Of a DNA stretch of 44,529 nt, positions 27,131 through 28,909 are shown piece after piece. Source of the DNA: Escherichia phage SP1. The notes under the pieces were generated by a model. The model saw only the letters and a list, made by a program, of their open reading frames with translations. It ran no database searches and was not told where the DNA came from. How positions within the stretch are numbered: position 1 is the stretch's first letter; each line of letters opens with the position of its first letter. The stretch is taken from sequence record PV610739.1. One strand, given 5' to 3'. Both the position numbers and the translations under genes were made by a program.

Positions 27131-28909
27131 ATGGCAGCGGGTACACTATCCGTAACGAATAACAGCAAGGCGGTTGTGGGCGTCGGCACAACGCTTACCG
27201 CGCTGAAGGCTGGCGACTTCCTGTCGCTGGTAGTGGGGCAAGTCCCTTACACTGTCGCTATTGCATCCGTAGAAAGCGACACCGCGCTTACGCTGGTGCT
27301 GCCGTTCGATGGCCCAGCGGCAACCGGCCTCGCATGGGATAGCGTGGCGCGCGATACAATGTCGCTTGCGACTATGGGCGTAACCGTCCAGGCGCAGAAA
27401 GCGCTACGTATGCTTATCGCGGATGAAAACAACTGGCGTGCAATCTTCGGCGACGCTGAAGAAATCTCTGTCACGCTCCCGAACGGGCAAGTAATGCAGG
27501 GTATGTCATGGGGCTATCTGTCGCAATTGCTCAAGCAAGTTGACCCAGTAGAGATGCGCAACCTGCAACAACAAGCCGCCGCATCGGAAGCCGCCGCACT
27601 GGTGTCACGCAATGAGGCCGAAGGCTTCAAGAACGAGACGGCAGGCATTCGCGACGCCACCGATCAGATTAAGACTGATACGCAGGCGATCCACGACGCC
27701 ACCAACACCATCAAGACGCAAACCAACCAGATTAAGACTGATACGCAGGCCATCAAGGACGAGACTAACCAGATTAAGACTGACACCGGCGTTATGAGGG
27801 ACGAGGCCAACACCGCGAAGACGGACGCGCAAGCAGCCAGCACTGCCGCGCAGGGATTTCGCGATCAGGCCGAAGAGTGGGCGCAAAGCGTAAACGCCGA
27901 TAATCTGCTAACTAAATCCGGCAACCTGGCAGGCATTGCAGACGTTGCAGAAGCGCGCGACAACTTAGAGATCGGGCTGACGGATACACTTAATATTGGT
28001 GGCCTGGTAACGTCCGGCGGTATCTCCGCGGGTCGAAACGCGTGGGACGGGTCAAACTGGGGGAGCCAATGGGTTATTGCATCATTAGCTATCCTAGCAC
28101 CAGACGGAAACTCATCCCCCGGCTTATATGTGCGTAACAGCAACGGCAGCGGCGGATATGCGTCTGAATGGCTGTATTATGAGAACACGAACGCCTGGGC
28201 GACGAACGCGCGAGTTGTCGGCTATCAATTCCGTTCCCCGAAGGGGACTATGGGATATAATCAGTTGTGGTCTGAAGCTGCGGTACGAGTGGACCCGTAC
28301 ATCGGGCAGCTTAACGCGGAAAACTATCAGTCGTTAATCGCGGGGGCTGCTATGACGCAAGGCCACGGATTTGCGGGCGGTGTTTCGTTCGGGATTATGA
28401 CAACCGGCAGTAACAACTGGCCTCGGGCGCAGATCTCGATCGGCACACAGGACCGTGACGCCGCGGGGAATATGTGGCTTCAGATGCATTTCCGCTTCGA
28501 TGATCAGGGGCGGATCTCTTACAACGGACCACAAGGCACGGGGTCATTCCAGCAAGTGCCCGCATCTGACCGCAACCTGAAGCATGATATTGCCGATGAT
28601 ACCAGCAGCACCGCCTACGACAATATCAAGGCTATGCGATTCCGTACGTTCGTATTCAACAACGACGAGCAAGAACGGCAGCGCCGCGGTGTTATCGCGC
28701 AAGAACTGGAAGAAATCGACCCGCTGTATGTGAAACACCGAGAGTATAACAACCATGAGTTAAACGGGCCATTGATGCACCAGCTTGAACTGGACACAAC
28801 GCCGCTGTTACTCGACACTATGCGGGCGTTGCAGGATGCGATTAAGCAGGTGGAGGAGTTGAAGGCCGAGATCGCAGCTATGAAACAAGTGGAGGAGTTG
28901 AAGAAATAA
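27131..28909 (+). CDS. side tail fibre with C-terminal intramolecular chaperone domain
   Basis: Start ATG 27131 (RBS GAGGA), not track 27104; C-terminal DRNLKHDIADD...IKAMRFRTFVFNN resembles S74 auto-cleaving chaperone domain. Confidence 0.75.
   Translation: MAAGTLSVTNNSKAVVGVGTTLTALKAGDFLSLVVGQVPYTVAIASVESDTALTLVLPFDGPAATGLAWDSVARDTMSLATMGVTVQAQKALRMLIADENNWRAIFGDAEEISVTLPNGQVMQGMSWGYLSQLLKQVDPVEMRNLQQQAAASEAAALVSRNEAEGFKNETAGIRDATDQIKTDTQAIHDATNTIKTQTNQIKTDTQAIKDETNQIKTDTGVMRDEANTAKTDAQAASTAAQGFRDQAEEWAQSVNADNLLTKSGNLAGIADVAEARDNLEIGLTDTLNIGGLVTSGGISAGRNAWDGSNWGSQWVIASLAILAPDGNSSPGLYVRNSNGSGGYASEWLYYENTNAWATNARVVGYQFRSPKGTMGYNQLWSEAAVRVDPYIGQLNAENYQSLIAGAAMTQGHGFAGGVSFGIMTTGSNNWPRAQISIGTQDRDAAGNMWLQMHFRFDDQGRISYNGPQGTGSFQQVPASDRNLKHDIADDTSSTAYDNIKAMRFRTFVFNNDEQERQRRGVIAQELEEIDPLYVKHREYNNHELNGPLMHQLELDTTPLLLDTMRALQDAIKQVEELKAEIAAMKQVEELKK
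27665..27790 (+). repeat. in-frame tandem repeats in tail fibre shaft
   Basis: Three copies of CAGATTAAGACTGA(T/C)AC... encoding QIKTDTQAI-type units. Confidence 0.6.

Follow-up and report, generated by a model that had tools for sequence, protein, structure and literature searches.

The window analysed here, a 44,529-nt stretch of Escherichia phage SP1 (sequence record PV610739.1), belongs to a Dhillonvirus-type coliphage and carries on its forward strand a gene for an ordinary lateral tail fibre, closely related to a published and modelled fibre of already known architecture. The protein is identical to Bas85_0029, annotated as 'tail fiber protein', at 544 of 592 residues (92%, no gaps) and matches phrog_1980 tail fiber (E = 1e-137). 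These matches agree with a first-pass annotation of this DNA in which the gene was called a tail fibre, although the span given there (27665-28909) takes in no more than its 3' two-thirds. The best matches at the DNA level are RuthEpting/Bas85 (94.8% identity over the gene), Haito/Bas83 (92.0%), Gluttony (82.0%) and Bas84 (80.5%), and in about 140 other Dhillonvirus records the DNA match is confined to the 5' 47% of the fibre gene. Megablast did not find the gene in 5,426 complete E. coli genomes, and it is therefore not prophage-borne there. The order of a J-like tail gene, two reverse-strand genes and the fibre gene is the same in Bas85, Bas83, Bas84 and a contig referred to below as L002. 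All features are listed in Table 1, with residues numbered from the ATG at 27131.

Table 1. Features of the fibre gene and its surroundings in the 44,529-nt window (aa, amino acids; nt, nucleotides).
Feature	Position	Strand	Basis or remark
Lateral tail fibre gene	27131-28909	+	592 aa plus stop; open reading frame list, homologue N-termini, Bas85 match
Shine-Dalgarno-like GAGGA	27119-27123	+	7 nt upstream of ATG 27131; direct reading
N-terminal anchor, aa 1-135	27131-27535	+	most invariant alignment columns lie in aa 1-155; conserved across Dhillonvirus
Coiled-coil rod, aa 136-261	27536-27913	+	18 uninterrupted heptads; heptad table, AlphaFold2 helix
Direct-repeat block in rod	27659-27826	+	17-mers at 27665-27681, 27728-27744 and 27770-27786; spacing 63 and 42 nt (3 and 2 heptads)
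Linker	27914-28000	+	motif K-x-x-NL-x-x-(I/V/L)-x-D-x-x-x-AR-x-NL, here KSGNLAGIADVAEARDNLEIG; recombinant relative to Bas85
Receptor-binding tip, aa ~291-478	28001-28564	+	DT57C LtfA-related; 94-100% nt identity to Bas85
Peptidase_S74 intramolecular chaperone, aa 479-592	28565-28906	+	PF13884, Foldseek
Predicted autocleavage site S-D-R-N-L-K	28565-28582	+	Ser479 at 28565-28567, Lys484 at 28580-28582
Chaperone terminal helix with duplicated A(I/M)KQVEELK	28838-28903	+	exact 15-mers at 28850-28864 and 28889-28903
Hairpin followed by T-run, terminator-like	28910-28938	+	-15.9 kcal/mol, z -2.9; hairpin and T-run at 28910-28933, directly 3' of stop codon
J-like gene	22387-25833		upstream of the two reverse genes and the fibre gene
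324-aa protein gene	25861-26835	-	phrog_1265 'membrane protein'; DUF6453 in L002; rtp44-like according to the HK578 record
73-aa lipoprotein gene	26829-27050	-	LSGC lipobox; matches PF24052 and, weakly, Cor (superinfection exclusion)

The mechanically called open reading frame (ORF) runs from 27104 to 28909 (+) and encodes 601 aa, but translation probably starts at ATG 27131 and not at ATG 27104. Among the 120 best of 321 homologues, on which our homologue counts are based, 113 have the N-terminus MAAGTLSV that corresponds to ATG 27131. The Bas85 annotation begins at the equivalent position, and the spacing of the GAGGA motif fits the start used in those 113 proteins. The segment from 27104 to 27130 overlaps the 5' end that the reverse lipoprotein gene would have if extended to a TTG codon (26829-27113), and in both cases the longer version is probably an artefact.

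Between an N-terminal anchor, which presumably attaches the fibre to the tail tip, and the linker lies a coiled-coil rod. In 13 of the 18 rod heptads, position 3 holds Ile, Phe, Met, Trp or Leu; in the other five (the first, the third, the last and two near the C-terminal end) it is polar or Ala. Thr or Ala occupies position 7 in 16 heptads. These two positions alternate with spacings of 3 and 4 residues, as the core positions of a coiled coil would, and AlphaFold2 predicted a single continuous helix over aa 139-253, with a predicted local distance difference test (pLDDT) score of ~80-90 over aa 171-240. If the coiled coil is canonical, the rod is ~19 nm long. The chaperone family described below is trimeric, and a multimer model of Bas85 Gp29 has been published; both suggest that the rod is three-stranded. 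Outside the closest relatives, residues 1-131 of the anchor are 43-45% identical to fibres of N15 (gp25), HK225 and Salmonella phage S135, and a profile search matched aa 1-70 to PDB 23gd_B, 'Distal tail protein gp20' (E = 5e-4). For the rod and linker (aa 132-281), identity to the fibres of ~50-kb siphophages such as atuna, LL5 and tiwna is 35-40%.

Within the window, the sequence CAGATTAAGACTGAYAC occurs at 27665, 27728 and 27770 only, all inside the rod, and it did not occur in any of 100 dinucleotide-preserving shuffles. The three copies belong to a family of 63-nt repeats (27659-27721, 27722-27784 and 27764-27826), the second and third of which are 76% and 65% identical to the first. The first two units are adjacent and the third is offset by 42 nt, giving start-to-start spacings of 63 and then 42 nt. 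The three in-frame shaft repeats noted in the first-pass annotation are thus present, but the offset of the third means that they do not form a regular tandem array, and Tandem Repeats Finder reported no array over 27000-29000. Copies 1 and 2 encode (D/N)QIKTDTQAI and copy 3 encodes NQIKTDTGVM. The QIKTDT repeats in the DNA are heptad units of the coiled-coil rod rather than a hypervariable tandem array, and because they lie in heptad phase, any exchange between them would alter the rod by whole heptads. Several overlapping and antisense ORFs in 27605-27886 were considered and rejected as unsupported by-products of the repetitive sequence.

We determined rod length in the 115 homologues with recognisable flanking anchors. 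The modal length of 126 aa (18 heptads) is kept by 86 of them, or 75%, including the phage studied here; the remaining rods are of 119 aa (n = 18), 112 aa (n = 3), 105 aa (n = 2), 98 aa (n = 2), 91 aa (n = 3) and 9 aa (n = 1). The last of these is from phage jat, in which the rod is gone between its flanking IDP motifs. Among sequenced isolates fetched separately, bob has a rod of 42 aa (6 heptads) and A144 one of 133 aa (19 heptads), the single example longer than 18 heptads that we found. All length differences are multiples of 7 residues, the rod-less case excepted, and the isolates as a whole span ~1 to 19 heptads. Repeat number, which had been proposed to vary, therefore differs among relatives in 7-residue steps rather than being invariant. 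The common anchor and rod carry 21 clusters of tips. Rods of 18 heptads are the commonest in most of these clusters, and the occurrence of shorter rods in six separate ones indicates that contraction has happened repeatedly. A literature search found no paper on heptad variation in siphovirus fibres.

Several observations on the compared records stand apart from these counts. The A144 record (L007, MG065648.1, 'Campylobacter phage A144') stands under Dhillonvirus with the mark UNVERIFIED. The GenBank 'Campylobacter phage' records A144, A131, A113 and A14b all bear coliphage-type fibres, and their Campylobacter host labels are probably wrong or derived from contamination. In the fibres of HK578 (L009) and rolling (L010) the rod is of another kind, built from heptads rich in Ala, Thr and Lys. 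The HK578 rod contains three exact tandem copies of NTAKTGAETARDQA and so is a clearer case of tandem repetition than the rod of this phage, and the rolling record annotates repeat_region features in its fibre rod.

At the DNA level, contig L002 matches the Bas85 gene throughout except for two clean 42-nt deletions at repeats. Deletion 1 corresponds to the loss of one copy from a near-perfect 42-nt tandem duplication in Bas85 and Bas83, and deletion 2 falls between the repeats CAGATTAAGAC(T/G)GATAC, the same shaft repeats that had been put forward as potential sites of contraction. Both deletions end exactly at direct repeats, which bears out that proposal. At the site of deletion 1, the phage studied here has a NETAGIR unit where Bas85 has TDTQAIH, indicating that Bas85 and Bas83 were converted at this site without a change in length. 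A further difference is that nt 720-810 of the gene (27850-27940, the end of the rod and the linker) share 97% identity with Logan contig L003 and only 55% with Bas85, whereas the segments on either side agree with Bas85 at 94-100%. The fibre gene is therefore a recombinant mosaic. The linker motif given in Table 1 is widespread in fibres, and profile positions 254-312 matched the short tail fibre gp92 (PDB 9zd7, E = 1e-10).

The alignment profile matched DT57C LtfA (PDB 8hqz_d) with E = 6.3e-46, profile positions 309-587 aligning with chain residues 791-1074, and the same search also matched the chaperone-bearing fibres 7dc3, 8jov and 6f45. A single-sequence search of the PDB returned DT57C LtfA plus weak matches only. 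The related phages Bas83, Bas84 and Bas85 use lateral fibres that target the O16-type O-antigen and a central fibre that binds porins (PMC11990801). Because the tip is 94-100% identical in nucleotide sequence to that of Bas85, it probably binds an O16-type O-antigen as well. The pattern of tip clusters suggests that host-range diversity in this fibre family follows exchange of the whole tip module. The first-pass annotation had proposed that the shaft repeats could vary fibre length or host range; fibre length does differ, but host-range diversity maps to the 21 tip clusters, and nothing in the data examined here links rod length to host range.

The C-terminal part of the protein scores 47 bits with PF13884, the Peptidase_S74 intramolecular chaperone (IMC) family, for which the Pfam gathering cut-off is 22 (E = 3.2e-12; residues 488-543 in the numbering of the 601-aa ORF), confirming the earlier prediction of a chaperone at this end. 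AlphaFold2 modelled the domain with pLDDT mostly 70-85 and with a terminal helix at aa 556-591. The Foldseek matches of the domain are IMCs only: MyRF ICA (7dc3, E = 4.6e-4, TM 0.60), GA-1 (3gud, TM 0.53) and K1F (3gw6, E = 0.01). All 49 aligned homologues, which carry many tip types, have Ser479 and Lys484, and the two are spaced like Ser1264 and Lys1269 of T5 pb1, from which the whole chaperone domain leaves after cleavage (PMC4690869). By analogy, the chaperone of the present fibre is predicted to be released by self-cleavage after the trimer has folded.

A second repeated sequence, GTGGAGGAGTTGAAG, has exactly two copies, which start 39 nt apart at 28850 and 28889; none of 100 shuffles contained it. 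The copies lie within a 27-nt repeat of 85% identity that encodes AIKQVEELK and AMKQVEELK. The C-terminal QVEELK duplication reported earlier is thus real, but it is inside the terminal helix of the chaperone and not after the domain. Its second copy is an 18-nt block, CAAGTGGAGGAGTTGAAG (28886-28903), that behaves as an insertion or deletion among relatives: it is present here and in Bas85, Bas83 and L002, diverged (QAEELK) in Bas84 and Gluttony, and absent in L003. The short allele ends ...QVEELKAEIAALKK (...AEIAALKK), 108 residues past the serine, and the long allele ends ...AEIAA(M/L)KQ(V/A)EELKK (...AEIAAMKQVEELKK), 114 residues past it. Both alleles are found among close relatives, as would follow from the variability that the first-pass annotation had anticipated, and the chaperone seems able to do without its final six residues. 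In other chaperone lineages of the family, the number of units in the terminal helix also varies (AEIAELK/AAVEELK/AAVAALTKA). We dropped the idea that the two QVEELK copies evolve in concert (E/D co-variation), as Gluttony has QVEDLK followed by QAEELK. In T5 pb1 the terminal helix forms a central triple coiled coil that is the proposed start of folding (PMC4690869). If the present fibre is cleaved as in T5, the QVEELK copy, lying downstream of the cleavage serine, has no bearing on how long the mature fibre is or on its specificity. The suggestion that the C-terminal duplication could alter fibre length or host range is therefore disfavoured, as the segment would be discarded.

Taken together, we consider it highly probable that the protein is a modular homotrimer consisting of an anchor, an 18-heptad rod, a linker, a T5/DT57C-like tip and a self-cutting chaperone, that the rod repeats act as substrates for slippage and that the QVEELK duplication is discarded. 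Three chains would associate via their C-terminal chaperone helices, and the chaperone would then template folding of the tip, and the rod would close into a trimeric coiled coil. Ser479, with Lys484 as the activating base, would cut the chaperone off. With the anchor holding the fibre on the tail tip, the tip would bind the O-antigen, the phage would cross that layer, and the central fibre would then engage an outer-membrane protein receptor. The QIKTDT repeats would be young intragenic copies of two- and three-heptad rod units, between which recombination or replication slippage would cause whole heptads to be lost and occasionally added or converted. Loss of heptads would leave a shorter yet functional rod. 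The QVEELK duplication would add six residues to the last helix of the chaperone. As a polymorphism in a part outside the virion, it might be neutral or slightly stabilising.

Several points weigh against this interpretation. Homology, heptad structure, the invariant Ser/Lys pair and the length polymorphisms with their end points come directly from the sequences, but the trimeric state, the cleavage, the O16 specificity and the mechanism of deletion are elements that we infer rather than take from experiment. The AlphaFold2 monomer, computed from a 49-sequence alignment, has a mean pLDDT of 52 and falls below 50 over aa 284-431; Foldseek searches with this low-pLDDT model gave no matches for the tip, and the model was informative only for the rod helix and the chaperone. 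The description of the tip as 'T5-like' therefore draws on the profile match to DT57C LtfA and on the model published for Bas85. T5 pb1 was recovered by neither the single-sequence nor the profile search of the PDB. The putative O16 specificity is transferred from Bas85 by similarity of the tip only, since the linker differs. Deletion 1 of L002 could be a collapse during short-read assembly, as it has 33 identical flanking bases. Finally, the counts reflect the best 120 of the 321 homologues.

An alternative is that the repeats constitute a programmed hypervariable locus of the contingency type, at which slipped-strand length variants switch or broaden host range. The in-frame, heptad-phased variation in rod length among relatives would fit such a locus, as would the end points of deletions at repeats and the near-perfect 42-nt tandem duplication in Bas85 and Bas83 at the place where this phage has another unit. 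However, contingency loci are recognised by near-identical, slippage-prone units arranged head to tail, which the three 63-nt copies of 65-76% identity are not. The long units (42-63 nt) number only three and are imperfect copies, Tandem Repeats Finder detected no array, exactly 18 heptads are retained in three quarters of relatives and are the commonest number in most tip clusters, A144 alone exceeds 18, and host-range diversity tracks replacement of the tip module. We therefore regard programmed variation as improbable. The rod repeats are real sites of in-phase contraction, but variation at them is sporadic rather than programmed. Alternatively, the rod might be an evolvable spacer or 'ruler' that tunes the reach of the tip relative to the central fibre, and the length of the chaperone helix may likewise tune trimerisation of the tip; the preferred 18 heptads would then possibly match the depth of the host's surface glycan layer. 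We see this as an unlikely idea, if a little less so than a programmed locus.

It is also conceivable that rod-length variation results mostly from collapse of internal repeats in short-read assemblies and that true length is invariant. Many of the homologues come from Logan/ENA metagenome assemblies, and deletion 1 of L002 lies in a 33-nt exact repeat. Nevertheless, short or long rods are present in the sequenced isolates jat, SECphi4, HH3, Oekolampad, EE09, bob and A144, heptad phase is always kept, unlike in random mis-assembly, and deletion 2 is not an assembly collapse because only ~13 identical bases flank it, too few for collapse of an assembly graph. Of all the explanations considered, this one seems to us the least probable. 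Barely more credible is the possibility that the QVEELK duplication alters the mature fibre, with the chaperone uncleaved or its tail retained, and so affects receptor binding or length. Cleavage of Dhillonvirus fibres is a prediction only, and the polymorphism of the second copy among close relatives could reflect selection. Against this, the invariance of the catalytic Ser/Lys pair in 49 homologues argues that cleavage is maintained, and the varying number of helix units in other chaperone lineages is what would be seen in a tolerant, discarded segment. Thus, a modular fibre with sporadically contracting rod repeats and a disposable chaperone is the interpretation that we favour.

The surroundings of the fibre gene also show features of their own. 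The J-like protein contains an internal near-repeat, QTVAAKFGEQEAAIQQ / TQVAAQFGQQSAAIEQ, in an Ala/Gln-rich stretch of its translation ahead of the C-terminal domain. In Gluttony, bob and rolling, two forward ORFs and a cor gene replace the two reverse-strand genes between the J-like and fibre genes, and judging from these sequences the site looks like an exchangeable terminal-receptor and exclusion module. The hairpin at 28910-28938 is GC-rich, has T-runs on both strands and lies between the fibre gene and a convergent gene (28932-29507, reverse strand); it looks like a bidirectional terminator. A promoter scan of 26800-29100 gave three matches versus 1.9 ± 1.7 in shuffled sequence, that is, no excess.

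The significance of these results is small, and they would not surprise a specialist. They set right the annotation of the gene with respect to its start codon, domain borders and predicted cleavage site, and they identify a predicted O16-type O-antigen-targeting lateral fibre, which should aid host-range prediction and fibre engineering. A modest comparative addition is that Dhillonvirus rods change by whole heptads, from 18 down to ~1 in viable isolates. This indicates that the rod is a tolerant spacer and offers a site for designed shortening or lengthening. Two smaller additions are that contractions end at intragenic repeats and that the terminal hexapeptide of the chaperone is an insertion/deletion polymorphism.

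Among known systems, the rod resembles the proximal rod of T7 gp17 (PDB 7BOZ) and the Lpp trimer in its Ala/Thr-rich polar heptads, although the matches are weak (E = 0.01-0.08) and the likeness is one of composition and periodicity, for which we do not claim homology. The chaperone shares the Ser/Lys pair and fold matches with the K1F endosialidase (3GW6), the GA-1 neck appendage (3GUD) and MyRF ICA (7DC3), with Foldseek target TM-scores of 0.53-0.63 for 3gud and 7dc3. Unlike IMC domains on triple beta-helix tailspikes, however, it follows a T5-type tip, and its terminal helix has a six-residue duplicated extension that is missing in some close relatives.

Closer similarities are found among the T5-like phages. 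Residues 791-1074 of DT57C LtfA (PDB 8HQZ chain d) are homologous to the tip and chaperone of the present fibre, and T5 pb1 has the same Ser-x4-Lys pair and likewise a chaperone that ends in a helix. Both proteins are much longer (1076 and 1396 aa, respectively, versus 592 aa), and the present fibre differs from them in its shaft, which is a plain heptad coiled coil, and in its unrelated anchor. The closest system is Bas85 Gp29 (Bas85_0029), together with its counterparts in Bas83 and Bas84. In the BASEL paper, Gp29 is described as a long coiled coil at the N-terminus, joined to a T5-like tip that binds the receptor and bears an IMC domain at its C-terminus (PMC11990801), and infection by Bas83-85 is blocked by GtrABS glucosylation only when the O-antigen is expressed (PMC11990801). 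Gp29 is like the fibre described here in its 592-aa length, gene neighbourhood, 18-heptad rod and tip, and it too carries the long C-terminal allele, in which QVEELK is present twice. Bas85 differs in having TDTQAIH converted or duplicated at the first rod unit, where the present fibre has NETAGIR, and in its linker, which is only 55% identical.

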